Shown here piece after piece: positions 10,136 through 36,861 of a stretch of DNA of 64,000 bases. The stretch comes from Nemertoderma westbladi (taxonomy: Eukaryota > Animalia > Xenacoelomorpha). The position numbers and the translations under genes were made by a program. The stretch is taken from NCBI GenBank assembly GCA_032718475.1, contig JAUCBJ010007822.1, forward strand, positions 124,001-188,000, in the 5' to 3' direction. The notes under the pieces are model-generated. The model worked only from the letters and a program-made list of their open reading frames with translations, was not told the DNA's origin and made no database searches. Position 1 is the stretch's first letter. Each line of letters opens with the position of its first letter.

Positions 10136-10271
10136 GGTGAAATAGTTTATAGGTGTACCACTCAATTTAAGTAGGTCCGTTAAACTATATTTAAAGTGTT
10201 TAATTTTTAGCGAATATTTATATTGTTATTATTATTTTAATAGGCCTCTTTGCATCAAAATAGAACGTAGC

Positions 10272-12282: not shown

Positions 12283-12495
12283 CGCCCATGTGAAGAATAC
12301 CAGGATTTCACTTTTCGGTCGAATTTTTATTGGAATTTTATATATGAAGATTTTTTATTTTATTTAATGTATCTTTATTAAGTGTCTCATAGCGCTTATT
12401 TCTGTCTTATAACCTGTACATATACTAATTCGTTTATTGTTTTGGTTAGATTCAGCCCTTCTGTAACCTGTGTTTTTGGTGAAAACCTGGTATTC

Positions 12496-13698
12496 TGTTC
12501 GCGCTTTCAGACTTTTGGCAGTTTAACCCGCCAAATTAGGATGTCTTCTAGATAATAAATCGCTTTTAGCCTCTGACAAGTATTTGATTCACTACACTAG
12601 TTGAAACCAATCTGTGCGCGATCATTCACCCGCTGGATATACCCGGGAGATTGATTTCGACAGCTTAATCTTATTGCTATGTAAGCCTAATGTATTATTC
12701 GACTGACAGTATTATATAATCTCTGACAATATTATTCACCTTCGGGGAATATTAACAGTTCCTTTAGGACGTGGCGCTCTATCTATATAAACAGAGTTAT
12801 GACTTAAACTACTCACAACGATATGGCTTAGTTATAATTCACATATATGGCGCATTCTTTAGGAAATGCTTCGTTATCAGTCTCACTCATACACAATGCT
12901 GCACAATACTGCACACTAATCTGCCGATCTTCACTGATTTTAGTCACATATAAAAGGAACACAGACCGACTCATGTAGGGTCTATCAAATAACATTAGAT
13001 TCACTTCAAACCACTTTAACATAAGTCGCAATCGTTATATGTAACCTGTCTCTCTTACCTTCAGTATATCAAGAATAATGGGGTTTCGGGGTTATTTCTC
13101 GTTATTCCCATATAATATTTCATCACCATATAATGAAGAACCGACAGTAAATAGCAGTATAACAATATAAACGTATGTACGATAAGATAAGTTAAGTTGA
13201 GAGTTGATGTGATGGTGTGATTAGATTTGTTATGTTTGGTATGGTATGGTTGATAACGGATATATGTCCTTATAATTAAGCCTACTAGTGTTAGGCTAAA
13301 AGCAGAAAAACACAGAATATTCCAAAAGCCGTTATTTTCTGGCTTAAGAAAACCAACACACTGAACCCTGTGAGCTATTGCAGGTAGATTTCAACACAGA
13401 AAGGAAAAGCTCTCATTGGCAGAGTTCCATATTCCACAGATTCCAAATCATCTAAAATGCCAAACCTCCCTAGCCTTTGCAGCCCGTAGCTAACACACAG
13501 AATGAATCACTCTGTTTGGTTGACCTTGCTCTGGTTGGTTGATCGAACCGAACAAGGAGGCCGTCGCTAGGCAAAATCAGCCAATCAGCCGGTAGCTTCC
13601 ATCATTCGAGCCAGTGAGCTTTTTAGAGTATTCCAGCGCCTTGGGGGGAACTGGATTGCGTAGCAAAGGGCCAGTTATATCCCACAAAAGCTTTTACA
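12496..13698 (-). repeat. 3' LTR (1203 bp)
   Basis: Direct repeat of 24225-25427 at offset 11729. I saw only about four substitutions by eye. Plus-strand termini are TGTTCG...TTTACA. Confidence 0.95.
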
Positions 13699-13707
13699 CC
13701 GCTCCCA
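13699..13707 (-). other. Putative polypurine tract
   Basis: Minus strand reads GGGAGCGG immediately before the 3' LTR start TGTAAAAG. Confidence 0.55.
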
Positions 13708-16700
13708 GAAAATGGGATTTAAGTCTATAAAATATACAAAATCACAGTTTCTAAAATATAAAAATACTCTAAACAGTTAGTCTTTCTTGCGCGGACGGCG
13801 TTTACGCAGTTTTTTGAGGCTAGTAAGAGTCCTTTTCTCTTTGGGGCGAGCCACTTTACAAGGAGGGCTATAACTCCTGGATGAAGGGTGCAATATGATT
13901 GCATCAGAAAGTGTAGGATTATAGTCGGGGTATCCGCCGTTTCGATATGCTTCTCCTCAAGCTGATTTTCCTCCGCTCATCGTTGGATACGTTCGTCCAA
14001 AAACCTTCGCCGAGAATAGGGTCGTCCAAGTTCAATATTGTCTTAGAGATTCGGGATTTCACAATCGAACTGGGATAAATCCAATCCGTTTACCGCTTGG
14101 ACTTGCTGTTATAATTTAAGTTTATCTGAACAAACGTAGGTTTCTTTTCTGATCTTTGTAGAATAGCGTCTAACTCGTTTCGTACAACGCTCTCCTCCAC
14201 CTTGATGACGGGTTGTATCGTGTTAAACGGGGACGATTACGATTATACGGTTGAATGGCGATATCAGGTGTCCGTGCCCCAATCCGGCTAGGTAAGATGG
14301 GCGGATATTTAGGGAGCCCATAACCGGAGTGCTACCGACTAACGGTTCGGATAACACTGGATCTCTGAACGGTGAGTACAGCTCGGAAGGATCCGTCATA
14401 CTAATAGGATCAAGAGCCTGGGGTTTCACTAGGGAACGAGGAGGTCTGATCGAGTATTCCGGAACTCTGATCATAGGTTTATTTAAGGATCGTTTGAGCC
14501 GAGCGAGCGTAGGTGATACATCGAACAAGTTTCGGTTTCCGTAGATGTTTATGTCTTTCCGTTTATTAGTTGGGTCTAGGGCATTTATCGTAATAATACC
14601 AAAGACGCACGTCTGGTAGGGGAAACGCGGGTGATATTTATTTGTTGTTACAATGCTTCTATCAAGAATTCCAAATATACGTTGGAGTTACCGCGTCCAT
14701 TTGTTTCTTTAGTGTCTTTTCTTTCGAGTCGATTTCGAATAGAATTTTCGCATTCGAATATCAGTTTATGGTTCCGACTCCGCTGGGCAGGATATATAGT
14801 CGACATAGTCCGTATTGTGTAAATCGATAGGATGACCAGTTGTTAAGAAGCCCATATACGTACCATTACGCTGCGTATATCGAGCAGCGAATTTGCTATA
14901 GTCCAACTCGCGCGAGAGCTGCTCTTGGGACATTGGCGGTTCGATATAACGACCATCGTCCTCCGCAGCAGTTGGACTAACGTCGCCGCGTATTAAGCTA
15001 TCAACAAACGCTTGTAAAAGTAGAGTATATCGCGATACCAAGACCATCTTCTATCAACTCCGTCATATCTGCTATATATGAGTTTATCCATATTATAAGG
15101 AGTTTATATTTAGGCTAGCGAGCGTCGCTGCCTACCCCAATTAGCCCCCGGACAGTGCGAGATCCTCAGCGCCGATGTGTCGTCGCCGCTGTACTTTCGC
15201 CAACGACGTAGCCGCACAACGACAACGACAACCGGCACAAGTCACTCGACTGTCCGTCCCAAAGGCTTAGATACACCTCAGGTTCTTACTGGAGAGTTAG
15301 GGTTACTTTCACAATTGCGACTCGCTACTGTAAACACACCTTAGTAGTAACATTCGCCTATAAACTCACAAATACCACACACACAACTTGTCACAAATTA
15401 CACACACTCGGGCCATTTGTCCGTTAGTCAATGCCTTCCAGAATGTCACTGTATTATTATGTATCCTTGGATACTAGCAGTGCGCTATTTATTCCCTATG
15501 CTATTCAATGGGACAAGCTTTCTATTGTTCTTTTAACTCAATTCTAATTCTAGCGTGGTTGTTGCTATGGTGACATTATGCAAAGCTAGCGGTAGAATTA
15601 GGGTAATTCCAATGCATACAGATCTGGGATGTTATTTAATAGTAATTCTTTAATGGTCAATGTCCTGTTTTATACATGACTTTATGAATTTTATCGGCTA
15701 TTGACTATGTTTGGGAGACTTTCGCACACTCATACGAATAATAAGATAAATCTCCGCTCCCTTGATCTATTAATTAATGGAATTTTGGGAATGTTATAAA
15801 TTGCGTAAAAATGGCAATTTATTAAATTCATTAAAAGGCATGAATTTAAATTTAATCCCTGAAATTTTATTATTTGATAATTAAATTGACATATTTTGAT
15901 TCTAGAACATGTCTGGGGACACAAGATCCTTAAAAATTAAATTGACATATTTTGATTCTAGAACATGTCTGGGGACACAAGATCCTTAATTCTATGAAAA
16001 TTGTCTTTTTAAGAATATCGGTAAATGCTACGATATCTTAATTGACTAGAATTGTTGAAGGATCTGAATTTTACAGATTTTGACTTATTAGATTTGCAAA
16101 TATTAAATAATTAATATTTGAGATGGGCACCGATTTATTCCAGAACTTGTCTGGGGACGTTAACCACTGATTCTAGAATTTGTCTTTCAAGTATATCGGT
16201 GGGTGCCGCGATATCTTAATCGACTAGAATTACAGATGGTCAAAAGGTTTAACAGATTTATGTGCGTTTTACGCTACTGTTAGAGGGACATCACGCTACT
16301 ATATGTATTATTATATACGGTATGAGAGCAATATCGCACGAAGCAATGTCAGTGTGAAGAGGCAAGTCGTTTCCAAGGTCTACCCAGAGCTTGGTTTAGC
16401 TGAGACACGAGGATCTGAACTTTGCATTCCTAATACTCTGCCTACCAATAATACTTGAATATAGTAGTGGCTTTATTGTACTTTAATAAGTACGGACATT
16501 TCATCTTACTGTAGTCACGTATTTATAATATGATACGGACAGTAAGGAAAGAGAAAAAGAATTATTTCTTGCCGTCGCTCTACATATATTATAAGTAATT
16601 ACGTACGCAATAAACACGAATATATTGCTATTCTACTAAATAATCGCTAAATAATATTCTACTAAATTAAATAAAACGATTATAATAAAATTACATAGTA

Positions 16701-16770
16701 ATACATACATAAATATAAAAATAATAAAATAATATAAAATAATAGAGTCACACACCCACTCCATATGTTG

Positions 16771-19626
16771 TTACGTTATGGAGTCCCTAGATGTTTGAAG
16801 GATTAGGGAGGTGGTCGTGGGAAGAGAATCTTGCCTTCCACAGTTTCCGGAGAGTCCTCCATTCCCTTCCGGTAAACACAAACGACCGACTGGGTGATTG
16901 AGTCGCTGCATCCCGAATACAATTCCAGGTTTCCTCTTCGTCCTGGAATAGTGATGATAGAAACATCGCTCTAAGTACACGACGGCCTTACAAAGCCGAT
17001 TCCAGGAGCTATAGTGGTCCGTCGCTCCCTGCAGGAGAGGTGAGAGTCCCTGCGAGACGTCTGATGTTCCAGAGCTCCAATCGCTCTCTCTGATCTTCAT
17101 GAAGGATCCACTCGCGGTGGGGAGGTCCAGATCCACGGCGTCGTCCCTGGCAATATGTAATACCGACAGATCTATCCCGGGTTCAAATAACTCCGATCCA
17201 CCCGTCCGGGTTTTAGGTTTGACTTTCTCCGCTCCCTTGGCTGGTCTAATCTCAGTCGGAGTAAGATGGGGAGGCCATTTATCCTCCTTACTCAGGAAGT
17301 CGGGTTCACCTAACCAGTCTGTAGTATCTGTCAGTTCTTGAGGAGTTGCTCCTCTGGAAGCGATGTCAGTTGGATTAAACTTCTTGGGGCAATATCTCCA
17401 TTGATCTACATTGGAGCTAATATCGTCATTATCTGAGGAGTATGGTGTTCCCTCAGTTGGGTCGTCTCCCTCACTAGTATCATCTTCCCATTCACTCACC
17501 TGGCAGACGCGATCTTGAAGCAGTCTTTCTCTGAGCGTTCTTCGGGAAGGTCCAGTAAGGTACCAACCTACTCTAGTTCTTACCGCATAGGTCTGAAGTG
17601 GTTGCGGTTGAGCAGGTCGTTTCTCCAATGTCGCCAGCGCCTCATGCGCGTTTTGACCGATTAATATTTGTACTCCAGGATAATCGGTGTCGAATCTAGG
17701 GATGTGAAGTTGTTGGGCATGATCATCTTCGTCCCAATTATAAGGTTCCACTTGGGTGGTAGCGAAGTTCTTTATTGCCACCATTTTGACTGACCTTATA
17801 CTGTGTTCTCCTAGTTTATCCTGTGGAGTGGACAACTCACCTATATAATAGTCGGCAGCTACAGTAGATTTCCAAACCTGCATGATTCCTGACATATTTA
17901 GCTTGGTTCGGAACTTGGGTTGTCCAGCGAAGATGTCTTCGGCTAGTTCTTTATCAATGAATGTTCCTGTGCTGCCGGAGTCCAGGAGGGCGTTCACTAT
18001 ATAGCTCTTCTGAGGTCCGTGGACCCGTAACTGGACTACAGGAAATTCTCGGATTCCTACATTTGAAGTTGGCGCTTTCCAAGATTGTTGTTGATCTGAA
18101 GTAGTTAGGGTGAGGTCGCTGTCTGTGTCTTTCTCATACATGAGTGCTCGATACACTGCGGTGGTGTTTATTAAGTAACAGGATTCGTTTTGGTCGGAGA
18201 ATTCGTCCGTATAGAATCCTTCCATCTCAGAACTTTGGTCAGTGTCGTTCACATCACTGAATTGGACATGTAGTTGTTCGGACTCACTTACCTGACTCGG
18301 GCTGCTTCGTTCGAATTCAGTGTGCAACAAGATATGATGTTTTGCACCGCACTTTGCACACCTTGCGTCGGAGTAACAGGTTCGCCGTTGGTGTCCTCGT
18401 CTGAGGCAATTATAACACAACCGCTTATCCCACATGACGTCCCGTCTCTCTTTTAATGATTTCTTTAAGAATTCATAGCACATATTCAAGCGGTGAGTCC
18501 CGTCACATAGTACACATTTAGGTTTGATGTTACTGACCTTATTTTGGGTGACATTGTGCACACTCGTTCTTTCTTCAGACTTTCTCACCTGAATTCTTTT
18601 AGGAGACGTAGGAGGGGTTTTTCGTACTGGTTCCCTTCTGTCATTGGGTCGAGACTTGGATTTACTTACCTGGTCTTTAGGCATTTTATTGACATAATAA
18701 GATCTATCAGTGTCTTTTCCGCTATCCTCTCCTTGAGAAGTCTGGCTTTCGCCATCTTCGGTATAACACACTGGTGTTACTTTTCTCCTGGAAAGGGGTT
18801 TTTCACTTACCTTGTTTTCCGGTGTCTTCTCTCTGGACTGCTTGAGGAGTTGCAATTTCACTTCTCCATCCAAGAATGACATGAGATCAGCCATGGTAGG
18901 GTCTCGTCGTTGTTGTTCCATCATATATAGTACTTTCTTATCCCAGCGTGTGCCTACCCCACCTTTCGGTAAAGTAGAAGCCACAGCTCCAATGACCATA
19001 GAACTTTGGTATTCATGAGACTTACCTAACCAATCTAATTGTCTACAGATCTCTTGAATCTCATCGGAAAACTCTATTATCCCACTGCTGATGAACTTTC
19101 TGGGCGCTACTAATTTTGCATATAAATACTTAGCGATATTATTCCTATTACCATACCTGATGTTTAGTGTGTCCCAAACTTGTCTTAATCCGTCTGGATG
19201 TCCAATAAACTTTAACGCCATTGACTTGGGAGATCCTTCCAAGCACTCGATGAGAAATCTAAGTTTCTCTCCGTTGGATAGCACAGAGTCCTGTATGTTA
19301 TCTTTATAATATTCATTAAAAGGTAACCATTTCATCTCATCTCCATTAAACTTGACGATCTCTCCAACCTTTACCGCTTGCCGGGCTTTGGTTCTAGCCA
19401 TTTGTCGTGTAAAACTTTCTTGGGCCATCGTATTATTGAATAGAGAATTATCGGTATATAAATTTCTCGGATTATGATCAGGTCTATATGGAATATCGCT
19501 ATCAACAGGTTTATAATTACCCTTAATAGGGTTTCCTATAGGAGTCTCTACTTTGCTAGCAGTATAGATGCGTGTAGGCTCCACACCTTGCGCATGGGAT
19601 ACTTCAGACCTAACGGGTTGACACAT
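16771..19626 (-). CDS. BEL/Pao Gag-protease ORF fused in frame to remnants of the RNase H C-terminus and Pol tail (951 aa)
   Basis: Capsid-like segment KFNGDEMKW..F...EKLRFL..CLEG; knuckles CVLCDGTHRLNMC, CYNCLRRGHQRRTC, CAKCGAKHHILLH; protease ALLDSGSTGTFI and ILIGQ; BEL RNase H end QWRYCP..NPTDIASRG..W.GEPDFL; SSWNRL motif. No YxDD and no integrase core. Confidence 0.88.
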   Translation of the reverse strand: MCQPVRSEVSHAQGVEPTRIYTASKVETPIGNPIKGNYKPVDSDIPYRPDHNPRNLYTDNSLFNNTMAQESFTRQMARTKARQAVKVGEIVKFNGDEMKWLPFNEYYKDNIQDSVLSNGEKLRFLIECLEGSPKSMALKFIGHPDGLRQVWDTLNIRYGNRNNIAKYLYAKLVAPRKFISSGIIEFSDEIQEICRQLDWLGKSHEYQSSMVIGAVASTLPKGGVGTRWDKKVLYMMEQQRRDPTMADLMSFLDGEVKLQLLKQSREKTPENKVSEKPLSRRKVTPVCYTEDGESQTSQGEDSGKDTDRSYYVNKMPKDQVSKSKSRPNDRREPVRKTPPTSPKRIQVRKSEERTSVHNVTQNKVSNIKPKCVLCDGTHRLNMCYEFLKKSLKERRDVMWDKRLCYNCLRRGHQRRTCYSDARCAKCGAKHHILLHTEFERSSPSQVSESEQLHVQFSDVNDTDQSSEMEGFYTDEFSDQNESCYLINTTAVYRALMYEKDTDSDLTLTTSDQQQSWKAPTSNVGIREFPVVQLRVHGPQKSYIVNALLDSGSTGTFIDKELAEDIFAGQPKFRTKLNMSGIMQVWKSTVAADYYIGELSTPQDKLGEHSIRSVKMVAIKNFATTQVEPYNWDEDDHAQQLHIPRFDTDYPGVQILIGQNAHEALATLEKRPAQPQPLQTYAVRTRVGWYLTGPSRRTLRERLLQDRVCQVSEWEDDTSEGDDPTEGTPYSSDNDDISSNVDQWRYCPKKFNPTDIASRGATPQELTDTTDWLGEPDFLSKEDKWPPHLTPTEIRPAKGAEKVKPKTRTGGSELFEPGIDLSVLHIARDDAVDLDLPTASGSFMKIRESDWSSGTSDVSQGLSPLLQGATDHYSSWNRLCKAVVYLERCFYHHYSRTKRKPGIVFGMQRLNHPVGRLCLPEGNGGLSGNCGRQDSLPTTTSLILQTSRDSIT

Positions 19627-19651
19627 TGTTACAGAGGGTGATGGTATACGT

Positions 19652-21940
19652 TTACGATACGATATACGATAAGTTTACTAATTTATCGCATTCTAACGCG
19701 ATACTTTGCTGCACTTCTTGCAACTCTAACTTACTTTCCCTCACTGTTCCCTTAAGTTGGTGAACATTCCCTTCCAAATCTCGGACCTGCCGGGAGGAAC
19801 ATTCCTGTTGTTCCCTCAGCTGCCCGAGCAAGAGACCCATCTCCCGTCGTCCCTCATCCACCCAATCCGCCGCCGAAGCGGGGTCCGCCAACGTTGTAGC
19901 GGGAAGACGAGGGACAACGGGCGATATATCGTTAATGTCTCGCTTGTTGTCTAAAACAGGAAGTGACTTGTGAACAGTCTTGCTAGGCACAGATGGCACA
20001 GATAGTTTGGTGCTGTGCAAAGGGAATCTAGAGGTTATTTCAGGTAGTACAGGTGTCTCTAGCACTGAAGGTGTGGCTTCGAGAACAGGCCTAATTATTT
20101 CCGGCTCATCTACTATAGTAGGGAGTTGGTTTACGGTAGTAATTTGGTCTGTGTGTTCTGTACTACCTACGGTTGCGCTGGCTAATTGTCTTCTAACAGT
20201 GGGGGGCAATTCGGGCAATTTATGACGGTGAGACGTTCTTTTACGCCTACTAAGACGAGATCTATTTCCTCCGCCTTCAGGATCGGTGGTATCTCCCTCC
20301 TCCGATGATGTATAACCTTGGCGTTTGGAAGTAGATCGACTCATCATCTTCATTCGACTATCAGTTAACTGTCTATTGATGTTGTCTTGCGTCTCTTGCA
20401 GATTTTCCAACTCCAGTTGGATAGTTTCTTCAGATGCTCTTCGTTCTGCTTCGGCCACTGCCTCTGCCGCCTTTCTGTCCGCTTCGGCTGCTGCTTCTGC
20501 TGCCCTTTTGTCCGCTTCGGCTGCTGCTTCTGCCGCCTTTCTCTCTGCCTTTCTGTCTGCTTCGGCCGCTGCTTCTGCCGCCTTTCTCTCTGCCTTTCTG
20601 TCTGCTTCGGCCGCTGCTTCTGCCGCCTTTCTCTCTGCCTTTCTGTCTGCTTCGGCCGCTGCTTCTGCCGCCTTTCTGTCCGCTTCGGCTGCTGCTTCTG
20701 CCACCTTTCTGTCTGCTTCTGCTGTTGCCATTGCCGCTGCTACTGCTGCTGTCTTTTTGTCTTCAATCCGCCTTTTCTTTACTTGTTCTTCCTGGGCTCT
20801 AACTATGCGGAGACGTTCATCAAATTTAGCTTGGTCTGCAGCTAACATTTCAGTATCGATTGCGTCCAACACATGCTTGGCTCCTTCACTATTAGGGGAA
20901 AGTCCAGCCAGCCGTCTCCTCAACTCATCGTCTCCTGATAGGAATCGCTGATAGTCGGACAGATATATGTCAATAGCGTCTCTAGTTCGCGGCTTCTCTG
21001 TTGCTGATACTTTGCCTTCCCCTTGAGAAAAAGTGGCATCATTTGATTCTTCGTAGTGGTAGAGGCGCTCAGCCAACTGAGTCTTCCACCTGTCGGTTTC
21101 TTGAACCTTGAGGCTCACCCGCTGGAACCAAGTTTTAACAGCAACTTGCAATGACGTGTCCTGTTTTCTTTTAGATGTTTCTTCAAAAGCCGATAGAATT
21201 AGTCTAATGCGTAGAGTTCTTTCGCGTACTTGATAAAGCAGCTTTTCCTGCTCTTGAGGTCCTCGTTGTTGTCGAAACAGCTGTTCTTCTAAACGCTCCA
21301 AAGAACCGAAGAACCCTTGTACGTATCCAGCTGCCGACCTCTTCCAAACAGCTGGATCAACGGTGTCCTCAGCCACTCCCATCCGGTGTATATCATCCCA
21401 GGTGGCTTCTGACAGGTTAAACGGGAGTCCGAGTCCGGGGAAGTTCCATTGTGATTCGACAATGGACATCAGTTCTTCCTTCGAATATCCCGCATAATCA
21501 TCTTTAGTCGACTGCCCATTTCTAACCCAATCATGTTGGTGTTCTTCTACCGCAACTAACACCGTAGTGAGTACTGCTACCGGAAGAACTAGAAGAGGGT
21601 CCTCGTAAACCGTATCCGCCATCTTCGCTCCGCGTTCGGGCGTTAACTCAACAGTATCCGAACTACTGGAGCTATCGGGCCACTGAGAACTAGGTTCTTG
21701 GCTAGGAGGTTGCTGCTGATTGGCAGCTGCTTCTTGATCCCGCTTGACTTGGGCCCGCGTGCCGATGATAGACCTATGGTGTTGGATTAGCTTAGGGTCT
21801 GATATCACTACAGGAGGGGTAACCTTCCTTACAGTAGGAGGTGAGCTGAACTTAGGTCTCGTCGGTTCCACACTCCTATCTGAGTCACAGATGGTGGTAT
21901 CTAGAAGACTGTCTGATAGGTTCTGCTTTGTGTCAGACAT
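19652..21940 (-). CDS. Upstream retrotransposon ORF (762 aa), coiled-coil and Ala-rich, probable Gag N-terminal extension
   Basis: Long ATG-initiated ORF inside the LTR element on the same strand as gag. It carries AEADRKAERKAAEAA repeats and heptad-like segments and ends 26 nt before the gag ATG, in a different frame. Confidence 0.7.
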   Translation of the reverse strand: MSDTKQNLSDSLLDTTICDSDRSVEPTRPKFSSPPTVRKVTPPVVISDPKLIQHHRSIIGTRAQVKRDQEAAANQQQPPSQEPSSQWPDSSSSSDTVELTPERGAKMADTVYEDPLLVLPVAVLTTVLVAVEEHQHDWVRNGQSTKDDYAGYSKEELMSIVESQWNFPGLGLPFNLSEATWDDIHRMGVAEDTVDPAVWKRSAAGYVQGFFGSLERLEEQLFRQQRGPQEQEKLLYQVRERTLRIRLILSAFEETSKRKQDTSLQVAVKTWFQRVSLKVQETDRWKTQLAERLYHYEESNDATFSQGEGKVSATEKPRTRDAIDIYLSDYQRFLSGDDELRRRLAGLSPNSEGAKHVLDAIDTEMLAADQAKFDERLRIVRAQEEQVKKRRIEDKKTAAVAAAMATAEADRKVAEAAAEADRKAAEAAAEADRKAERKAAEAAAEADRKAERKAAEAAAEADRKAERKAAEAAAEADKRAAEAAAEADRKAAEAVAEAERRASEETIQLELENLQETQDNINRQLTDSRMKMMSRSTSKRQGYTSSEEGDTTDPEGGGNRSRLSRRKRTSHRHKLPELPPTVRRQLASATVGSTEHTDQITTVNQLPTIVDEPEIIRPVLEATPSVLETPVLPEITSRFPLHSTKLSVPSVPSKTVHKSLPVLDNKRDINDISPVVPRLPATTLADPASAADWVDEGRREMGLLLGQLREQQECSSRQVRDLEGNVHQLKGTVRESKLELQEVQQSIALECDKLVNLSYIVS

Positions 21941-24213
21941 TTCGGTTTATACAGTTGAGTGCCTACTGCTATAAATACAGCTAAAGCAAGTCTAGTAATT
22001 CAGTATCACTGATAGCTTAGTAATCAATTACTTATACTGCTACTCAGTGTAGCTATATATGTACACACAATATATTAGAATACCGGTATACACTTAAAGT
22101 ATATAAGTATTATTACAGGCTAGGTTTGTTTCAGAATACCGGTATGTGATTTCGGCACAAATAGATATAAGTATATAATAGGCCTATCTGGAATACCGGT
22201 ATACAGCTTACACTTATAGTATATAAGTATAATTATATTAGAATTAATTACAGAATACCGGTATGATTTCAGCTTAAATTTATGGAAATAAATATAATAA
22301 GCCTATTGCAAATACCGGTATGTCAATTATTTTAAATAATTGAATTTCTGAATTTTAGGAGTTACTTAGGTTACTTAGTTACTTTTCTTACTCTATTACC
22401 ATTACTTGAGCAATAGTCCAACTGATATTGAGACCTAATTGTTGTATGGCAGGCCTACTATTTATGAATCGTTTGAGTTGATTTATAATATATATATATA
22501 CCCGCTTAAATGGGTTTAGTCAATGTTTGAAATAAATGTTATTATTTCTGGGGAGTTAAATCACTACACAAAGCGGTGCGCTTTCAGTGAAGTGCTACTT
22601 ATAGGACACTAAAACAAATAATTCTACTTTCTAAGTTACTTATCTACAAATTACTTACGATTCGGGTTGAGATTACAATCTCTAAATAAACACAAAAATT
22701 TACAAAAAACACAAAATACGAATTTTTAGGGTGATTTTACAAGAAGTCTACAAACCAGCCTAACAAAGGGTTAGAATCTGGTTATTACAACGGACAGGGT
22801 ACTACGGTATTTGAAAATAATAAGTAGTAGTAAATATACTGCGCTGTCCAGATAGGAAAAAACCACCGCCTGACGACCTATAGCCGTATCGCTATAGGTA
22901 CTACGTTATGTATCACGGAGTGTCCCTACCTAGAGATTAATTACCGCGGTCTACCAGAACCAGCGTGCCTATTAACCACTTTACAACACAGATATACTGC
23001 CTACACACCAATTACCTTCGGAAAGCACTGTACACTAAACCCTAAATTAGGTACGAGTACTTGTACAACAGATAACCAGCAGTTAAAAATACTTGAACAG
23101 CTAAAAGAACCACGGCATCTGCTGGAGTGACCGGTGCACAAAATCACCAGTCTTTACCTACGCCAAGCAGCCCTGATGTAGTACCGGGGTTAATTTAACT
23201 ATAGCGGTATGTATAACAAGCACAATTACTGTAGGAATAAACTTGGGGACATGAATGTTGCGAATAATCGCATAAACTCTGAATAATAAATATTACGCAA
23301 CGCGTACAAACTACTCAAACAAAATGCAGACTAAATGCTGACAGACTACTATCAAGCCTAAACAAACTACGGTATGTGCAGACTCCGAAACGGTTAGTTA
23401 GTATGCGCGCTAACCGAGTAGTACGACTTATTCTTTAAGAGGGGGTTTACCTCACAGCACTGGAAGCCCCTACTTACTAACTGGCACTTTCTCGGACATG
23501 CACTCTACACACAACGCAATCCCTCAGACCTAATAACAGCTAGGCAACAATTCAGCCTACAGATTATCAAAATAAGAATATTACGCTACCCGTAGAGACT
23601 ACACAAACAAAGTACAGACTAAACGATGGCAGACTACTCTCAAGCCTAAATAAACTACAGGACATGCAGACTCCGAAATGGTTAGGTAGTATGCGTTCTA
23701 ACCCAGTAGTACGACTTATTCTTTAGATGGGGGTTTACCTTACAGCTTTGGCTGCCCCTACTTCCTAACCGCACTTTATCGGACAGATGATCTACACACA
23801 CTACAGTCCTTCAGACTTAACAACAGTCAGACAACAGCTCAGCCTACAAATTGTCTGTACAATCTGATCAGGCTTACACGCCTTCTGCTCAATATTGGCC
23901 TACAAACAAATAAAACCGACAGAAACAAGTAAAATCTCAATAAAAAACCAGGGCGGCCGTTCCCTGATTAAGTACTAAGACCTACCGGTATATAATTATC
24001 AAATCGAATAATACTAATGTACTTATACTGGAAGTACCGGTTAGGACAGTTGGGCCTACGGACCTACAGAAGTACCGGTTCTGGCAGTTGGACCTACGGA
24101 CCTACAGCAGTACCGGTTCTGGCAGTTGGGCCTACTGACCTACAGAAGTACCGGTTCAGATTTACCGGTCAACCGGTACTTTCAACTTTATTGCTTACTG
24201 CAATAAAGAAGCT

Positions 24214-24224
24214 ATATCCGTTAT
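24214..24224 (-). other. Non-tRNA primer-binding site candidate (ATAACGGATAT)
   Basis: Directly abuts the 5' LTR end (...GCGAACA), lacks TGG, and is complementary to an LTR-internal 11-mer at 24982-24992. Confidence 0.6.
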
Positions 24225-25427
24225 TGTTCGCGCTTTCAGACTTTTGGCAGTTTAACCCGCCAAATTAGGATGTCTTCTAGATAATAAATCGCTTTTAGCC
24301 TCTGACAAGTATTTGATTCACTACACTAGTTGAAACCAATCTGTGCGCGATCATTCACCCGCTGGATATACCCGGGAGATTGATTTCGACAGCTTAATCT
24401 TATTGCTATGTAAGCCTAATGTATTATTCGACTGACAGTATTATATAATCTCTGACAATATTATTCACCTTCGGGGAATATTAACAGTTCCTTTAGGACG
24501 TGGCGCTCTATCTATATAAACAGAGTTATGACTTAAACTACTCACAACGATATGGCTTAGTTATAATTCACATATATGGCACATTCTTTAGGAAATGCTT
24601 CGTTATCAGTCTCACTCATACACAATGCTGCACAATATTGCACACTAATCTGCCGATCTTCACTGATTTTAGTCACATATAAAAGGAACACAGACCGACT
24701 CATGTAGGGTCTATCAAATAACATTAGATTCACTTCAAACCACTTTAACATAAGTCGCAATCGTTATATGTAACCTGTCTCTCTTACCTTCAGTATATCA
24801 AGAATAATGGGGTTTCGGGGTTATTTCTCGTTATTCCCATATAATATTTCATCACCATATAATGAAGAACCGACAGTAAATAGCAGTATAACAATATAAA
24901 CGTATGTACGATAAGATAAGTTAAGTTGAGAGTTGATGTGATGGTGTGATCAGATTTGTTATGTTTGGTATGGTATGGTTGATAACGGATATATGTCCTT
25001 ATAATTAAGCCTACTAGTGTTAGGCTAAAAGCAGAAAAACACAGAATATTCCAAAAGCCGTTATTTTCTGGCTTAAGAAAACCAACACACTGAACCCTGT
25101 GAGCTATTGCAGGTAGATTTCAACACAGAAAGGAAAAGCTCTCATTGGCAGAGTTCCATATTCCACAGGTTCCAAATCATCTAAAATGCCAAACCTCCCT
25201 AGCCTTTGCAGCCCGTAGCTAACACACAGAATGAATCACTCTGTTTGGTTGACCTTGCTCTGGTTGGTTGATCGAACCGAACAAGGAGGCCGTCGCTAGG
25301 CAAAATCAGCCAATCAGCCGGTAGCTTCCATCATTCGAGCCAGTGAGCTTTTTAGAGTATTCCAGCGCCTTGGGGGGAACTGGATTGCGTAGCAAAGGGC
25401 CAGTTATATCCCACAAAAGCTTTTACA
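24225..25427 (-). repeat. 5' LTR (1203 bp)
   Basis: Direct repeat of 12496-13698, upstream of the ORFs on the coding (minus) strand. Confidence 0.95.
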
Positions 25428-25499
25428 TATTCTTCACATGGGGGTAACTGCAAAGTGAAATATAACGGCAGGGAGTCTGGTATTCTTCACATGGGCCGA

Positions 25500-26752
25500 C
25501 CAATGTACTAAATAGTAAAACATTAATGACGTAGGCCAATCTACTAAATAGTAAAACATTAGTGACGTAGGCCAATCTACTAAATAGTAAAAGATTAGTG
25601 ACGTAGGCCAATCTACTAAATAGTAAAACATTACTGACGTAGGCCAATCTACTAAATAGTAAAACATTAGTGACGTAGGCCAATCTACTAAATAGTAAAA
25701 TATTAGTGACGTAAGCCAATCTACTAAACAGTAAAATATTAGTGACGTAGGCCAATCTACTAAATAGTAAAATATTAGTGACGTAGGCCAATCTACTAAA
25801 TAGTAAAATATTAGTGACGTAAGCCAATCTACTAAATAGTAAAAGATTAGTGACGTAGGCCAATCTACTAAATAGTAAAATATTAGTGACGTAGGCCAAT
25901 CTACTAAATAGTAAAATATTAGTGACGCAAGCCAATCTACTAAATTGTAAAACATTAATGACGTAGGCCAATCTACTAAATAGTAAAATATTAGTGACGT
26001 AGGCCAATCTACTAAATAGTAAAACATTAGTGACGTAGGCAAATCTACTAAATAGTAAAACATTAATGACGTAGGCAAATCTACTAAATAGTAAAACATT
26101 AGTGACGTAGGCCAATCTACTAAATAGTAAAATAGTAGTGACGTAGGCCAATCTACTAAATAGTAAAATAGTAGTGACGTATGCCAATCTACTAAATAGC
26201 AAAATATTAGTGACGTAGGCCAATCTACTAAATAGCAAAATATTAGTGACGTACGCCAATCTACTAAATAGTAAAATATTAGTGACGTAGGCAAATCTAC
26301 TAAATAGTAAAATATTAGTGACGTAGGCCAATCTAATAAATAGCAAAATATTAGTGACGTACGCCAATCTACTAAATAGTAAAATATTAGTGACGTAGGC
26401 CAATCTACTAAATAGTAAAATATTAGTGACGTAGGCCAATCTACTAAATAGTAAAATATTAGTGACGTAGGCCAATCTAATAAATATCAAAATAGTAGTG
26501 ACGTAGGCAAATCTATTAAATAGTAAAATATTAGTGACGTAGGCAAATCTACTAAATAGTAAAATATTAGTGACGTAGGCCAATCTAATAAATATCAAAA
26601 TAGTAGTGACGTAGGCAAATCTACTAAATAGTAAAATATTAGTGACGTAGGCAAATCTACTAAATAGTAAAATATTAGTGACGTAGGCCAATCTAATAAA
26701 TATCAAAATAGTAGTGACGTAAGCCAATCTACTAAATAGTAAAATAGTAGTG
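25500..26752. repeat. 36-bp tandem satellite, right part (~35 units)
   Basis: Same unit and orientation as 10272-12282, resuming in phase after the nested insertions. It carries more variants than the left part. Confidence 0.97.
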
Positions 26753-26823
26753 ATGGTAATTGAATTAGTGTGATTTCACCTTTTTATTTTATATTTAAAC
26801 TTTCTTCTCAAATGTGAGGCAAA

Positions 26824-29772: not shown

Positions 29773-32400
29773 TCAGTTTGAAGGTTGTTGGTCCAAGACG
29801 GTAGGTGCTGACTCCGGTTCAGGAGTAGCGTCATCAGCATCGCGTTCCGAGTTAACCAGTTCGTTATCACTCTCGGGGTTGACCATTAAGGATTTCAATA
29901 AATGCGCCGTTCTTTCGTCCATCCGTTTCTCTACAAACGTTTCTCTCTCCAACTCAACCACTCGTTGCCTTTCCTTAAGGACATTCTCGCGGATATCATC
30001 CAGATGTTTAGCAGCTTTGTAAAACTTCATTACGAAGAAAACATGGAGCTGATGAGTCCAGAAATTAAACTGTTTAGTTTCCTCGTCGATATCATCCAGA
30101 GCGACTTCCGGTTCCGTTGGTCTATCCGGAACGGTATCGGAACCCGCTGGTTCCACCACTTCGGATGGTTCGAACTCGACCATCGGCTCTTCCTCCACTT
30201 CCGGCATCGACTCCGGGGGCTTCGGTTCCTTAGACGCCGCCGCGGCCACCGATTTACTCGCTCGACGCGATTTCTTCCCCGATGATTTGCTCGCTTTCTC
30301 GTCGACATCGAGTTTCAAACTCGATTCCTTCCCCTTCCCGAGGGACTTGGATCTACTAGCGGACACCGTGGGACTCGCATCTTTAATCTGTTCGCTACGA
30401 ACCGAGAGTTTACTCGGTTCCGACTTCTCGTCGACTTCCACCTCGGGCTGCGATTGGTTGGGTCGCGGACTCGACTGGCCAATAGCGACGCGGCTTTCCA
30501 CCGTCGAGGGCCGCGGTGTCTCGGGATTCTCTATTACCTCCTCGGTAACGAGTTTCACGGCGCAGCCTAGGAGAGCCTCGAAGAACTCGAGAAAACTCAG
30601 ATCAAACTCGAGGTTGCAGACCCCGTCATCGGGGTCGTAGAGTTTCGGGTCGTCCGCGGAAAGAATCCCGAGGATATCCCGGGAAGAGAGCCGATCCGAT
30701 ACGAGACGGAGTTCCGACATCATCCAGAGGAATCCGCGACACGAGATCGCGTACTCGTCGCGTCGCGAAACGAACCGCGGGTTGGAGTCGCAGACACTGC
30801 GGAAGATGTTCCAACAGTCGTCGATGTATCCCAAAGCGATAACCGCCCGACGAGTTTCCCCGAGGAAGTTTCCGCCGACTTTACTCGCGTATTTGAGGAT
30901 GTTTCTATGGACGAGTTGGGAGAAACAGTTTGAGAGGACGGGGGAAGGGTGGCAGGGATCGACGAGGTACGAGATGCGAACTAGAGCGTCGACGAAGTCC
31001 CGGAAGAGGAGTTTATCATCGGGATCATGGGAGGCGGGTCGGGAACGCGAGAGGCAGCGGTCCATCTGTGGGAGCGTGGCGTCGCCCAGCCGGTGGACGC
31101 GGCAGTCCTTTAGGAGACGCCACAACTGGAGTCGAGTCATCACGAAAGTGTTGTCGATGTTGACACCATGCCCGATAGCCGCGTAGATGTTATAGATCTT
31201 CTTGAGTTGGTTGATATTGCGGAGGATCGCTTTCTGTACTTGTCCGACTTCTAGAGTCGTGTCCAGGTCCACGCGGCTCGTGTCCGGGAATATATCTTGT
31301 ACGTCCAACGCGATGCTGAGAGCCATCGAGTCAGGGTCTATTTGTTCGGATTCCGAGGGCGGCAACGGGGTTCGTGTCCGAATCTCGGAGATGTCCGGGG
31401 TCTGATCGCCCACAATCTCGAACTCGGGGTACTCCAACATGCGGTCCTTATGGAAGACCCCCGTGTAGGTTCGTCCGTTCTTGAAGGTGAAGATTCCACG
31501 TCCGTGTTTCTCGTTGTCGACCCAGTCGCCCTGGTAACGGGCGCCGCTTGCGTATCGGAACTCTCCGAATCCGTGGCGTTTCCCGACTCGCCAGACGCCC
31601 ACGTACTGATTCCGTGCGGCGTACTGGCTCCCCGGAACCCGTCGCAGGTACCACGTGTGCTCCCCCTGTCCGCTCTGCACTCCGGCCTCCCACTGACCGA
31701 CGTACTCCTCGTCGGCCGCTAGCCAACGCATCGTCCCCCGTCCGTGCCGTCGCCCCGCCTTCCACTGCCCTTCGTACACGTTGCCCGACATGTAACGACG
31801 CACCCCGAACCCGTTTCGCAACCCGCGGGACCATTCCCCCTCGTAGAAAGATAAACTATCGTCATCGTAATAGGCGATTCCGTGGCCATTCGGTTTACCA
31901 TTCTCCCAATGACCGCGATACGTAAGATTTATCGACGGAACACGGAACGTTCCCTGACCGTGGCGTCTCCCGTTCCACACATCCCCTTCGTAGTAGGACT
32001 CGTCCAACCACATATAGCGACCATGTCCGGATATCCTGTTGGATTGGAACTCCCCGTGGTAAACGATTCCATCGGTCCAGGTATAAACCCCCAAACCGCT
32101 CATCATACCATCCAAAAAGTCTCCCTCGTAGCGGTTGCCCCCCATAAACACCGCCACCCCGTTGCCATGCAAACACGCGTCCTTTGTTTCCCCCTCGTAA
32201 GATTCTATTATTAGTTCAAGTAATTCCGGGTCATCATGGAATGGATCTTCTTTCCTAACTGGAATTTGTTCTTCCGGTTCAGTTTCTACCACGGCCGGTT
32301 CCAGTGTGTCTGTGACGTCCTCCACTGCACTTGTAACTTCTACGGGTTTTTCCTGTGGAGTAGCTTCGGCCGATTTACGTTTCTTCTTATCTTTTGCCAT
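29773..32400 (-). CDS. RSPH10B: Radial spoke head 10 homolog B-like MORN-repeat protein (875 aa), intronless ORF
   Basis: ATG at 32400 (MAKDKKKRK). About 10 MORN repeats (YEG.W..G.RHG.G) with the RSPH10B-type insert HTWYLRRVPGSQYAARNQYVG, followed by NTFVMTRLQLWRLLKDC and FLEFFEALLGCA. Confidence 0.88.
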   Translation of the reverse strand: MAKDKKKRKSAEATPQEKPVEVTSAVEDVTDTLEPAVVETEPEEQIPVRKEDPFHDDPELLELIIESYEGETKDACLHGNGVAVFMGGNRYEGDFLDGMMSGLGVYTWTDGIVYHGEFQSNRISGHGRYMWLDESYYEGDVWNGRRHGQGTFRVPSINLTYRGHWENGKPNGHGIAYYDDDSLSFYEGEWSRGLRNGFGVRRYMSGNVYEGQWKAGRRHGRGTMRWLAADEEYVGQWEAGVQSGQGEHTWYLRRVPGSQYAARNQYVGVWRVGKRHGFGEFRYASGARYQGDWVDNEKHGRGIFTFKNGRTYTGVFHKDRMLEYPEFEIVGDQTPDISEIRTRTPLPPSESEQIDPDSMALSIALDVQDIFPDTSRVDLDTTLEVGQVQKAILRNINQLKKIYNIYAAIGHGVNIDNTFVMTRLQLWRLLKDCRVHRLGDATLPQMDRCLSRSRPASHDPDDKLLFRDFVDALVRISYLVDPCHPSPVLSNCFSQLVHRNILKYASKVGGNFLGETRRAVIALGYIDDCWNIFRSVCDSNPRFVSRRDEYAISCRGFLWMMSELRLVSDRLSSRDILGILSADDPKLYDPDDGVCNLEFDLSFLEFFEALLGCAVKLVTEEVIENPETPRPSTVESRVAIGQSSPRPNQSQPEVEVDEKSEPSKLSVRSEQIKDASPTVSASRSKSLGKGKESSLKLDVDEKASKSSGKKSRRASKSVAAAASKEPKPPESMPEVEEEPMVEFEPSEVVEPAGSDTVPDRPTEPEVALDDIDEETKQFNFWTHQLHVFFVMKFYKAAKHLDDIRENVLKERQRVVELERETFVEKRMDERTAHLLKSLMVNPESDNELVNSERDADDATPEPESAPTVLDQQPSN

Positions 32401-33402
32401 TATTTGAACAATATTTCCACTTTTTTTCAAGATTATCAAAAACACCTTTGCCTCATATTTTCTAATTTAGCCCTGAATTACCGGTAATTAAGTATATGCA
32501 ATGCAGATTGTAGCCTACATTCTATAATTATACAAGATAATGTTTAATGTATATGTTTAATGTTTATGTTTAATGTAAATAGGGCGTGAGGAAGCAAATG
32601 CTTTTAAAGCCCGTACACACAATAAATAAAATTAACGGAGACATATGTAAAATATATATATGAAATTGTACTGTACACATAAATAAAATATTGACTGGGT
32701 TAAAACACAGGGTTTTAGGTAAAACTGAACGTAATCGGGACCGCACAAAGTAGTATGATAATAGGCTGGGAAAAAAAGCGTTAGTTCAAATTAGTATTAA
32801 AATTTTTATTAAAATTCCCGGTCAGGATAGTCCATCGGCATGTATATAAGTTTATAAATTAATCTCAATACCGGGTCCGGGTGTATCAGCTTCATCAGGC
32901 CAAATTACAAAATTATAATATAAAATTCATGTCAGGAATAAAAGGCAAATAAAAAGTATTATGAACTAGGTATTGTGGTATATAAAGTTAAAAACAAAAT
33001 TAGAGATTTGGGGTATAACAGTGGACAATTAAAGCTATAGTAAATTATAGAAAAAATGCAATGCAGCAACAGCAACTGAGGTAGTAAAAAATCAAACGAT
33101 TATTGGGAACATGGTGTAAAATAAATAAATAAATAAAAATTATATATAGGTAAAAAGTTCTGTATTAGGTGTTGTCTCCCAAAACAACAAATAACAGTTC
33201 AATAAAGATAGTTATATTATATTATATTATCACTGTACAATTAGTTAGGATATAGTATAAACTTTAAAAATACATTGCAGCAGCGTATAGTATAAACTTT
33301 AAAAATACATTGCAGCAGCGGAGAGGGTAGGGAGAAGTGTGAATCTGAGAGTGTGTGTTTGTGGGGAGAGGGGGGGGGGGGGGGGGGGGGGTGATGAACA
33401 AA

Positions 33403-35475
33403 TCATGTCCACCAGGAAGGGGTGAACTTTAATGGAAGGTTATGGTAATGTTCGTTTAGTCGGTGTTTAAAAACATTCAGTGACGGCGACGATATGACGG
33501 ATTCAGATAACGCATTCCACGGTTCTACAACTCGGAAATGGAATGTTGAGTTCCGCTGAAGTAGACGCGCTCTGGGTTTGGACAGTTTTTTAGAGTGTCC
33601 TCTGAGACCATCGCTGGGCGCGAGTGTGAGTACTGCGGAGCAGTCGACATCCTCCATCCCGGATAGGTAGCGAAATACCTGGATTAGGTCCGCCCTGTGT
33701 CGGCGGTGTTCCAATGTTGGGAGACCCAATTCTCGCAACCGTGTTGGATACGGTTTGTCTCGCATACTCCGGACTAACCTCGTTGCACGGCGCTGCACTG
33801 ACTCTAATAGCCTGATTTCGCCAATGCGATGTGGAGACCAGACTGGGGAGGCGTATTCTAGAATAGGTCTCACCAATGATTTGTATAAGTGTGTCCAGGA
33901 GTTTGAAGTGGCGCCATATCAACCCCAGAGTTCTATTGGCTTTCTTGGTAATAGTTCCAATGTGCTTCCCAAATGTTAGCGTATTCTGGAACGTCACACC
34001 GAGGTCCTTCTCAAATTGGACAGTTTGTAATATTGACGGACCAAGGGTGTACTGAAAACCGGGGTTATTGAATCCTAGGTGCATTATTTTGCATTTCTTG
34101 CTGTTGAATAGTAGCTGCCATGTGGTGCCCCAGGTATACAATATATCTAGGTCAGACTGAAGTGGTCCTATTGAATGCTGAGGAATGCTTGGGTGGAAAA
34201 TGCAGCTGTCTTTCATATCGTCGGCGAACATTTGTAGAATGAATTGGGTTAGAGAGGGGATGTCGTTAACGTAGCTGATGAAATATATTATCGAGTTTAT
34301 CCCCCCCTGTGGAACCCCACTGGTGACCGGAAGCCAATCAGACTGTTTGCCGTTAACGACTACTCTCTGATATCTTCCATTTAGGAAGTTGCGAATCCAT
34401 CCCAGTAAGTTACCTGATATTCCAAGGGACTCCAATTTACTCAGAAGCCGTCTGTGCGGAACTAAATCAAACGCCTTAGAAAAGTCTAAGTAGGCAATAT
34501 CAACACACTCGCGATTGTCTAATGCCAGTGACCAGGTGTAAATAGCATCCAGTAGTTGGAGGCAACAAGATCGACCCTTGCGAAATCCATATTGTGAGTT
34601 TGTTAAAAGGAAATTATCCTTGTAATGTCCCCACATTACGTCTGCTACAATGCGCTCCATGAGTTATGCGACTACAGACGTCAGACTCACCTTTCTGTAG
34701 TTGACTGGGTCATACTTAAAGCCATTCTTAAAAATTGGGGTGATATTGGCTAATTTCCATTCATTAGGGATAGTTTCGGTGGTCATGGATTTGTGGAACA
34801 GATTTGAAAGCGGCCCAGCAAGTTCAGCGGAAAGCTCTTTGAGCATTATTGGGTATATTCCATCAGGGCCTGGAGCACCAGATTGTTTCGATTTCATGAT
34901 CGCTTCAGACACTATAGATGGTGTGAACTCAACTGTCGTTAACTGATGTTTATAAATATATGGATGCAAAACAGATGGTATTATACTGGTATCCTCAACT
35001 GTTGCAATTGAGCTGTAATGTATGTTGAGAACAGTAGCTTTATCTTCACTAGTAGTTACCAGTTTTCCATTATTGTCCTTTAGGTCGTAGACACCAGCCT
35101 TTGTTTTACGTTTAGATTGTATGAACTTCCAGAATTCTTTAGAGTTTACGGATGCTTTCCTCGCAATCTCCTTTTCATAGTTATGTTGTGCGTCCCTGAT
35201 TCGAATTGTGCATTCGTTCCTAGCTGCTTTGTATCTTGAGTAAGATGTATCACTCTGATAATGTCTGTGAGAGCCCCACAGATTCCTTTTATTTCTTATT
35301 AGTGATCCAATTTCTCTTGTCATCCACTGAGGTGGATTATTCCCACTTTTCCGAAGCTTAACTTTTGGAATGTATTTCTCACATGATGTTGATATCCTGC
35401 TGTGGATCATGGACCACAATGATTGGACATCCATATCTGTGAGATGTCTAGCCCAATTTGTCAATGTTAAGTCTG
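33403..35475 (-). pseudogene. Decayed 5'-truncated CR1/L2-type LINE ORF2 (RT and 3' part)
   Basis: APGPDGI, NYRKVSLTS, QYGFRKGRSC, YLDFSKAFD, SGVPQG, MFADD, EKDLGV, VRPILEYASPVW, LRGHSKKL; broken by a stop and a frameshift. Confidence 0.9.
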
Positions 35476-35846
35476 ACCGGATGCGAACGATAATGTAATA
35501 CATACCGGTACAGTACATTGTGTAATGTAATGTAATGTAATTGCACTCCAAATAATTGCACCGACAAATAAAATAATTAATTATTTAAAATTAATCTTAA
35601 TGACATACATATTCACAAAATGAAATTGAATCAGACCTTTAATTAAACAATTATATGTATGGAGGGAGAAGATAACCCAGGCAATGTTGCACTTACGAGC
35701 GTATCTCTATTGGAATTAAGTAAAAATATTGCAAACTAAAAAAATAAAATGGTAAAACACGGTCAGTCATTATGAACAGAGAAAATATAAAAAAATATAA
35801 ATCAAAATCAAATCAAAATACGTGGCGGGGTATAATGTGTGCATAT

Positions 35847-36765
35847 TTAAACAAAATGACACAAGTGACTAAAATCAATATGACGTATATGGCAATTAAA
35901 AATATACAATTTACGTGCATTAACGGCATCTGAGGGCAAGGAATTCCACACGGATACTATACGGCTGGCAAAACGATTTCTGACAACGACTAGCCTGCTA
36001 GGCTGAGCAAACAGTTTCCTGTTATGGCCTCGCAAACCTTGCCGTTGCACATGCGAGAAAAAATCGTTAAAATGAAGGTCAATGTTATTGTGACAAATAT
36101 TATAAACCATACGGATATCAAAAATAATTCGCCTAACTTCTAATGGTTGGAGTTTCAAGTGTATTAATCTATTAGAGTAACTGTTATCTATGTGTGTTAA
36201 CTGACATCTTGAAAACAATCGTCTGGTGAAATATCGTTGGACGCGCTCAACCAATTTTATATTAAAAATTTGGTGAGGAGACCAAACCACAGTACAATAC
36301 TCTAACAGTGGGCGAACATACGCCTTATAAGCCGTAATAAGTACATTGACATTAGAAGTGTGGAAGCACCTAAATATTATATTGCACATTTTATACGCCT
36401 TGGATACTTGTTGGCTGCAGTATTTGCTGAAACGCAGATTTTTGGTAACGATAATACCTAGGTCCTTACAACTCTCCTTGAGTTCTAGAATAGAACCGTT
36501 GAGAGTGTACTCACTCGGTGTGCGTGTACCAAGGTAAAGTACATGACATTTGTGAGCAGCGACATTGAGCTGCCAGGTTTTACTCCAACTGGCTAATCTA
36601 TCCAACGCATTTTGAATGTTTGCCGGATTATTACTGTTTCCATATAATTTTAAATCGTCAGCAAATAGTTTGCAACCTACATTTGTAAATTCCGAAGGCA
36701 AATCGTTTACAAAAACTAGGAACAAAATCGGCCCCAAGACGCTTCCTTGGGGTGTTCCTGATTTG
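35847..36765 (-). pseudogene. 3' fragment of a CR1/L2-type LINE
   Basis: SGTPQG.LGPILF, LFADDLK, KDLGI, YVRPLLEYCTVVW, LRGHNRKL, WNSLP. Confidence 0.9.
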
Positions 36766-36861
36766 ACGTCAACATTAAAACGATGTTCAATTTATGTTTC
36801 GGCACTAACTCATAATCATTGAAAGGAAAGGTGTACCCAAAAGCAGCATTCTCTGATTCTG

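Follow-up and report, generated by a model that had tools for sequence, protein, structure and literature searches.

A BEL/Pao-derived LTR element carries a sequence signature of tRNA-independent self-priming

In a 64,000-nt stretch of the Nemertoderma westbladi genome (GenBank assembly GCA_032718475.1, contig JAUCBJ010007822.1, positions 124,001 to 188,000; the window), we found an LTR element of BEL/Pao descent that has a Tf1-like priming signature, lies outside the Tf1 group, and lacks the complete pol and the tRNA site that mark BEL/Pao family members. The site adjoining its 5′ LTR exactly complements a 12-nt motif within that LTR, so the element probably primes minus-strand synthesis with its own RNA, in the manner of Tf1, instead of with a tRNA. 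This position-exact complement and the relatives whose complements use other letters support, at the level of sequence, tRNA-independent self-priming in BEL/Pao. The signature is real and likely widespread; at the window locus it occurs in a defective element of atypical geometry.

A recent insertion lacking reverse transcriptase and integrase

The element lies on the minus strand (25427-12496; 12.9 kb) between 1203-bp LTRs of the TG...CA type (5′ LTR, 24225-25427; 3′ LTR, 12496-13698) that are 99.7% identical, differing at 4 positions. It is flanked by a 5-bp target-site duplication, GAATA (25428-25432 and 12495-12491, minus strand), and a purine-rich tract (13699-13712, minus strand) adjoins the 3′ LTR. 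The near-identical LTRs, the duplication and the purine tract indicate that this copy (copy 1) is a recent insertion. With just 4 differences over 1203 bp, the LTRs show that the LTR-adjacent site was used in a recent copying cycle. On either side of the element lie arrays of a 36-bp satellite.

Two minus-strand open reading frames overlap in different frames. ORF1 (19652-21946; 764 aa, stop to stop) had no Pfam match. ORF2 (16771-19674; 967 aa) encodes a DUF1759 Gag (Pfam, E = 2.9e-11), three Cys-His knuckles, a protease and only the tail of an RNase H. The protease match was weak in Pfam (E = 0.0099, below cut-off), yet this segment aligned to the proteases of relatives. PF05380 and PF03564 were present in all four longer homologues of the element protein. 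When 62 full-length BEL/Pao polyproteins were compared with the window by tblastn, only Gag, protease and an RNase H tail of about 50 aa were matched, and neither reverse transcriptase (RT) nor integrase had a match anywhere in the window. Lacking both enzymes, copy 1 is a non-autonomous BEL/Pao derivative, and without RT, integrase and most of RNase H it cannot cut or extend its own primer. We filed it as a derivative and not as a full member of the Belpaoviridae because a Pol with RT, RNase H and integrase is missing.

Contigs assembled from a single run, X1, which is only tentatively RNA and shares 13% of the sequence words, matched 29 of 30 bins along the element in many diverged versions. 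Some of them reached about 90 nt to either side of 17519-17521, near the join between protease and RNase H; contigs spanning this region suggest that the RT-less form is probably a family and not one copy.

The LTR-adjacent site is an exact complement of an LTR motif

The preliminary description of this DNA had placed ATAACGGATAT directly after the 5′ LTR, where a TGG would be expected for a tRNA site, and the coordinates bear this out: the sequence occupies 24224-24214 on the minus strand, 0 nt past the LTR end at 24225, and has no TGG. Past the LTR, a TGG first occurs at a distance of 275 nt in copy 1 and of 185 nt in a second copy (copy 2). The complement that had been reported within the LTR (24992-24982) was confirmed, as was the end of pairing at the LTR boundary, and the motif occurs again in the 3′ LTR at 13263-13253. 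In copy 1 the match extends to 12 nt, between a primer-binding position at 24213-24224 and a candidate self-primer at 24982-24993 (both minus strand; LTR positions 435-446 for the latter); in copy 2 it is 11 nt, and it too ends at the LTR end. By the self-primer rule of Neumann et al., as it stands in passages of PMC6317226 (a match of 10 bp or more that begins 0-5 bp past the LTR), the window element qualifies with 12 nt at offset 0. The motif begins 768 nt before the LTR end in copy 1, leaving a loop of 757 nt between primer end and LTR end, in line with the long R-U5 that had been pointed out earlier.

The match was rarely reached in dinucleotide-shuffled LTRs. Of 20,000 shuffles for copy 1, one reached it at offset 0 and 15 did so at offsets 0-5; for copy 2 these counts were 19 and 54 of 20,000. 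Also allowing splice junctions gave 2 of 1,000 for copy 1, and no splice-built primer in the window element exceeded the contiguous 12 nt. ARAGORN found no tRNA genes in the window. A reading of the motif as part of a poly(A) site was set aside: the copy 1 LTR contains neither AATAAA nor ATTAAA, and hence no canonical poly(A) hexamer, and the sequence 3′ of the motif is C/A-rich.

Copy 2 lies on the plus strand and continues past the end of the window. Its 5′ LTR (61462-62689; 1228 bp) has a U3 mostly unlike that of copy 1. As had been noted, it keeps both 11-mers, the motif at 61925-61935 and the primer-binding position at 62690-62700. It adds little independent support, because R-U5 is identical at 672 of 695 positions (97%) and a 58-nt block that carries the motif (25037-24980) is identical in 57 of 59 columns, ending 2 nt past the motif. 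The divergence that had been described around these parts was also evident: 37 of 85 positions are identical in U3, 28 of 60 in the 60 nt 3′ of the motif and 37 of 81 in the leader. As the motifs are identical in both copies, no covariation is visible within the window family. One X1 contig (depth 16.6 of 22.3) carried 24224 T>A and 24220 G>T (plus strand), which alter two bases among the first five of the site and still leave it without TGG. One mirror change, A>T at 24982, was not among the six A>T rows in the part of the table that was listed, and this position is thinly covered and close to where the alignable block stops.

Distant relatives carry self-complements in other letters

The best protein relatives of the element were only about 30% identical, and we found no close ones: query P0001 yielded no confirmed locus among viral or metagenome contigs, and alignment A2 yielded none among viral contigs. 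We therefore turned to distant BEL/Pao loci. A search of metagenome contigs with an alignment of 20 polyproteins gave 79 discovery loci, of which 45 reach the end of Gag. We scanned 41 of these (38, plus 3 with a cruder shuffle), leaving out L002, L005, L023 and L052, which have almost no upstream DNA. As the LTR end we used whichever A[CT]A ahead of Gag scored best, a freedom that the shuffles were also given.

Thirteen of the 41 loci, from 12 families, had an 11-16 nt complement that was matched by at most 5 of 100 shuffles, where about 2 of 41 are expected by chance at this cut-off, which was chosen after the data had been seen. These were L004, L007, L010, L012, L018, L019, L028, L034, L043, L046, L048, L056 and L059; L046 and L048 are one family, and the splice donors of L007 and L019 are weak. 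All 13 complements span a GT-AG junction and none is contiguous. Any GT was allowed as donor, and the donor was GTAAGT, GTGAGT, GTAGGT, GTATGT or GTACGT in 11 of the 13. In the TGG-type discovery loci (L016, L020, L045, L064 and L077; complete LTR in two of the five) the complement was at most 6 nt. The remaining 23 loci, assigned to neither type, include five near misses (L030, L031, L038, L075 and L076) and many with truncated LTRs.

We then applied the same pairing rule to a held-out set, with the LTR end taken from the repeat pair alone. This set consisted of 44 BEL/Pao DNA loci inside prokaryotic genome bins, presumably host contamination; 12 fragments were dropped and 32 loci were tested. 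From these 32 we excluded 12 without a repeat pair, 5 whose pairs run into a contig end, 1 with a cut 5′ side and 4 that were judged not LTR-like (L091, L102, L115 and L118). All four non-TGG elements had a self-complement (L080, 11 nt; L081, 11 nt; L098, 14 nt; L100, 11 nt), reached by 0-2 of 200 shuffles. None of the six TGG-type elements exceeded 7 nt (Fisher p = 0.005 against the non-TGG elements, a value that overstates independence because kin share states, with two state changes on the tree). With four discovery loci added whose ends are also fixed by repeats, a self-complement was present in 6 of 6 non-TGG elements versus 0 of 8 with TGG. In these six non-TGG elements the complement is 11-15 nt long and differs in its letters; in five it exists only across a GT-AG junction in the LTR, and in one it is contiguous. 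The contiguous case, L080, has identical 320-bp LTRs and a target duplication; its 11-nt primer pairs at offset 4, and an AT-rich, TATA-like stretch precedes the primer by 27-29 nt. This is the layout of Tf1.

Among the relatives the letters of the site vary from family to family, which is not what a fixed tRNA would give. The window element resembles the relatives (L004 to L059, with L043, and L080, L081, L098 and L100) in having no TGG and, as they do over 11-16 nt, a complement in its own LTR. It differs in protein sequence, in lacking the RT and integrase that they encode and in its much longer loop; the distance from primer end to LTR end was 23-150 nt in the 12 spliced relatives, of 14, in which it was measured. 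Except in L080, moreover, the relatives have the complement only across a GT-AG junction, whereas that of the window element is contiguous. The primer of the spliced relatives lies 170-390 nt into the LTR, at an exon end, and these elements usually have a canonical poly(A) hexamer. Most relatives would thus build their primer by removing an intron within the LTR, and the window family would have it ready in one piece. We also considered whether an acceptor just upstream of the primer, as found 32 nt before the window motif, is a shared feature; it was present in 8 of 14 relatives versus 5.7 expected (p = 0.15), and the idea was dropped.

In trees, which were built from 457 columns of Gag, protease and RNase H tail because the element has no RT, the element protein formed a long branch. 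It fell outside a clade rich in self-primers under LG+G4, and under a mixture model it was weakly sister to that clade (support 69). AU tests rejected neither placement (p = 0.49 and 0.53). A grouping of the element with L056 and P0015 was rejected (p = 0.003).

Start of the RNA and alternative readings

The TATA-like sequence TTATAAGG, which had been listed as a caveat, does lie 5-12 nt upstream of the motif (24997-25004, minus strand; LTR 424-431), inside the kept 58-nt block. Read conventionally, it would have transcription begin near LTR 452, some 6 nt past the motif; the window element has no TATA-like sequence about 30 nt upstream of the motif.

For an RNA that starts at the motif, the helix between site and motif was predicted to close the fold, with a pair probability of 0.87-0.99 in both copies. 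The predicted structure has this central helix and a U5 stem that ends 4 nt before the site; its 3′ side is a local hairpin and not a duplex between LTR and leader. Moving the 5′ end upstream lowered the predicted probability in copy 1 to 0.48 at -5 and to at most 0.33 from -9; in copy 2 it stayed at 0.90 or above to -13 and was 0.00 from -18. With such longer 5′ ends, the motif and the 20 nt before it were predicted to pair with a competing segment at LTR 819-875 (24553-24609, minus strand). The competing duplex, which was picked post hoc, is modestly above chance (reached by 15 of 500 and 6 of 500 shuffles), and 7-8 other 34-nt LTR windows score at least as high. Because the helix is lost with longer 5′ ends, the self-priming model calls for transcription to begin no more than about 5-13 nt from the motif, or for Gag to act as a chaperone.

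On the self-priming model, the transcript would begin at the motif or a few nucleotides before it, and its 5′ end would fold onto the site 768 nt downstream. RNase H from an autonomous partner would then cut just past the motif, and the partner's RT would extend the freed 3′ end into U5, as in Tf1.

The pairing might instead prime with a geometry unlike that of Tf1, which we consider unlikely. Since the TATA-like box would start transcription past the motif, the motif would then be present only in U3 near the 3′ end of the RNA (or in a longer leader), and the primer would be a cut 3′-end or internal piece of the same or a co-packaged RNA. In both copies TTATAAGG and a CA at about LTR 451-453 have ordinary TATA-to-start spacing, and the primer of the spliced relatives, being at an exon end, does not have to form the very start of the RNA. 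Against this geometry, with U3 in front the prediction pairs the motif with LTR 819-875 and not with the site, a cut past the 3′-end motif would presumably remove the R needed for strand transfer, and TATAAG is an imperfect TATA box.

It is rather improbable that the match is a coincidence within an AT-rich, partly palindromic promoter block and that the true primer is some trans-acting RNA, be it half of a tRNA, an organelle tRNA, a small RNA or RNA of the helper element. Six other inverted repeats of 10-11 nt occur in the same 2 kb, copy 2 is almost the same across the region, and priming by tRNA halves without TGG is described for Copia lineages in passages of PMC6317226. The position-constrained chance of the match is, however, only 5e-5 to 8e-4, and the complete split between non-TGG and TGG relatives with fixed LTR ends speaks against coincidence.

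Least probable of all is a purely structural or regulatory role, as an RNA switch or packaging fold that governs splicing from a donor-like site at 24787 or access to the primer-binding position: both copies are predicted to form two folds that exclude each other, and both also keep the donor-like site and a hairpin 3′ of the primer-binding position, but the competing duplex is the modest, post hoc one described above, a recently copied element would be left without a primer, and the match stops precisely where the LTR ends, a feature required of a primer but not of a switch.

The donor-like sequence in question, AG/GTAAG in R-U5 (24782-24787, minus strand; LTR 641), is present in both copies and is a candidate only. 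We rejected splicing from 24787 inside the LTR of the RNA that is copied, as progeny would lose the intron, yet both copies keep the donor. The hairpin lies directly 3′ of the primer-binding position (24186-24208, minus strand); its stem is largely kept between the copies, its loop differs, and its 3′ arm contains AATAAA.

Comparison with known self-priming elements

According to passages of PMC7175516, the Tf1 transcript's initial 11 bases pair with the primer-binding site and RNase H cleaves between bases 11 and 12. Self-priming is described for the Tf1/sushi group in passages of PMC6317226, PMC4600332 and bioRxiv 10.1101/2022.12.06.519325, and passages of PMC6317226 also predict it for Tcn1 and the Copia TAR lineage. 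As in those accounts of Tf1 and Tf2 of S. pombe, Tj1 and the Tf1/sushi group, the window element has an LTR-adjacent site that complements about 11 nt of its own LTR, and no tRNA site. Unlike the Tf1/sushi elements, which are Ty3/gypsy chromoviruses, it has BEL/Pao-type proteins and lacks RT, the RNase H core and integrase. It also differs from Tf1 in its 757-nt loop, and the three-duplex 'pretzel' presented in passages of bioRxiv 10.1101/2022.12.06.519325 is only partly predicted for it. The resemblance to Tcn1 and to the plant Ty1/copia TAR lineage (Houba, Osr-1) is that the same rule, in passages of PMC6317226, predicts self-priming for them; the TAR elements belong to a different superfamily and host kingdom, and those passages do not mention a splice-built primer. 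These predictions suggest that self-priming arose in more than one superfamily.

The ICTV account of the Belpaoviridae describes elements of 4.2-10 kb with a complete pol and an 18-nt site that complements the 3′ end of tRNA-Arg or tRNA-Gly, and calls BEL/Pao replication poorly understood (PMC8742986). The window element shares with this family the TG...CA LTRs, a DUF1759 Gag with Cys-His knuckles, a protease, a purine tract and an animal host. Unlike the Belpaoviridae of that account (PMC8742986), it has no 18-nt tRNA site, RT or integrase, and is 12.9 kb long.

In full-text literature searches we found no report of self-priming in BEL/Pao, a scope outside which lie subscription papers, Repbase, GyDB and supplements. 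By term search, the portions available of PMC554778 (Sinbad) and PMC3118150 (a BEL/Pao survey) do not mention PBS, priming or tRNA, and self-priming in BEL/Pao is absent from passages of PMC6934838, PMC3601003, PMC8220671 and PMC3286476.

An independent origin of self-priming in BEL/Pao had been proposed for this element. Self-priming in the superfamily is supported by the sequences, whereas a one-off origin here is not, the trait being common in relatives. Because it is common in the sampled relatives, where it is mostly splice-built, the trait appears to be older than the window element. Tentatively, and with not quite even confidence, we suggest that much of BEL/Pao self-primes, mostly with primers built by the spliceosome, and that the window element is an enzyme-less parasite of this system. 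The position of the LTR intron would keep strong-stop DNA from ever spanning the junction, and progeny would thereby inherit the intron. In the window element a ready-made primer, 757 nt from the site, would be cut and extended in trans by the RT-RNase H of a helper, and a fold that depends on the start site would prevent competition by the motif's 3′ copy.

If self-priming in BEL/Pao is true, it would extend to a third superfamily, making tRNA-free priming a recurrent solution. Such elements would no longer depend on tRNA supply and, we infer, would escape control by tRNA fragments. They would also be overlooked or mis-scored by LTR finders for which a tRNA site is mandatory. A self-priming element without RT would further imply that the primer cut can happen in trans.

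Two minor observations concern the surrounding DNA. In the region 12000-26000, Rfam gave just two matches, both at chance level. Elsewhere, the window contains an ISCU exon, which has many animal matches.

Candidate primer complements in BEL/Pao relatives

We examined distant BEL/Pao loci fetched from metagenome contigs or prokaryotic genome bins. At L004, L010, L012, L018, L028, L034 and L043, the complement of the LTR-adjacent site, where the minus-strand primer would pair, was found only across a GT-AG junction within the LTR, as it was at L046/L048, L056, L059, L081, L098 and L100. In the LTR regions of these relatives, the downstream exon supplies 3–8 nt of the junction-spanning complement, and a poly(A) hexamer usually lies within about 50 nt of it. 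On the basis of this arrangement, the complement is a candidate splice-built primer.

L080 is a BEL/Pao element with identical 320-bp LTRs (5′, L080:6091–6410; 3′, L080:12766–13085). Its self-complement is 11 nt long and contiguous, with a TATA-like stretch 27–29 nt upstream. Among the elements examined, it is the cleanest case of an arrangement like that of S. pombe Tf1, in which the first 11 nt of the RNA pair with the LTR-adjacent site. BEL/Pao DNA was present in bacterial- or archaeal-labelled contigs at 44 loci (L080–L123), with L094 and L108 both within one Wolbachia chromosome record. These loci are probably host DNA in bins or assemblies.

Candidate splice signals and copy differences in the window element

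The window element (copy 1, 25427–12496, minus strand) carries a strong donor-like site in R-U5 (24787, minus) and acceptor-like sites just upstream of the ORF1 start (~21980–21960, minus), splicing between which could yield an mRNA that lacks the primer site. No such joint was found among the listed matches to contigs of X1, a single sequencing run containing diverged copies. Two further exact 11-nt inverted pairs lie in the LTR and leader (25032–25022 with 24301–24291; 24431–24421 with 24014–24004), and copy 2 also has the arms of both. The LTRs of the two copies have their first 14 nt and R-U5 in common, whereas U3 largely differs (copy 1, 25427–25075; copy 2, 61462–61845), a pattern such as a promoter swap would leave. 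The 2.3-kb leader contains 38-bp tandem units and a 288-bp duplication (24031–24157, 23816–23278), and ORF1 an alanine/glutamate/lysine-rich repeat (20448–20749).

Other features of the window

Satellite arrays have units of 44 bp (716–8809), 36 bp (10265–12281 and 25500–26753) and 51 bp (46573–55955); long ORFs within them are a product of the repeats. Short MITE-like elements end in 50–108-nt terminal inverted repeats (9313–10135, 36884–37808 and 55995–56873). Three minus-strand fragments with RVT_1 matches (33590–36791, 39919–42901 and 58510–60212) gave no match to BEL/Pao polyproteins in a search of the window and are likely non-LTR retrotransposon remains. Also on the minus strand are an 897-aa MORN-repeat ORF (29773–32466) and one exon (56848–57363) of ISCU, an iron-sulfur scaffold gene.
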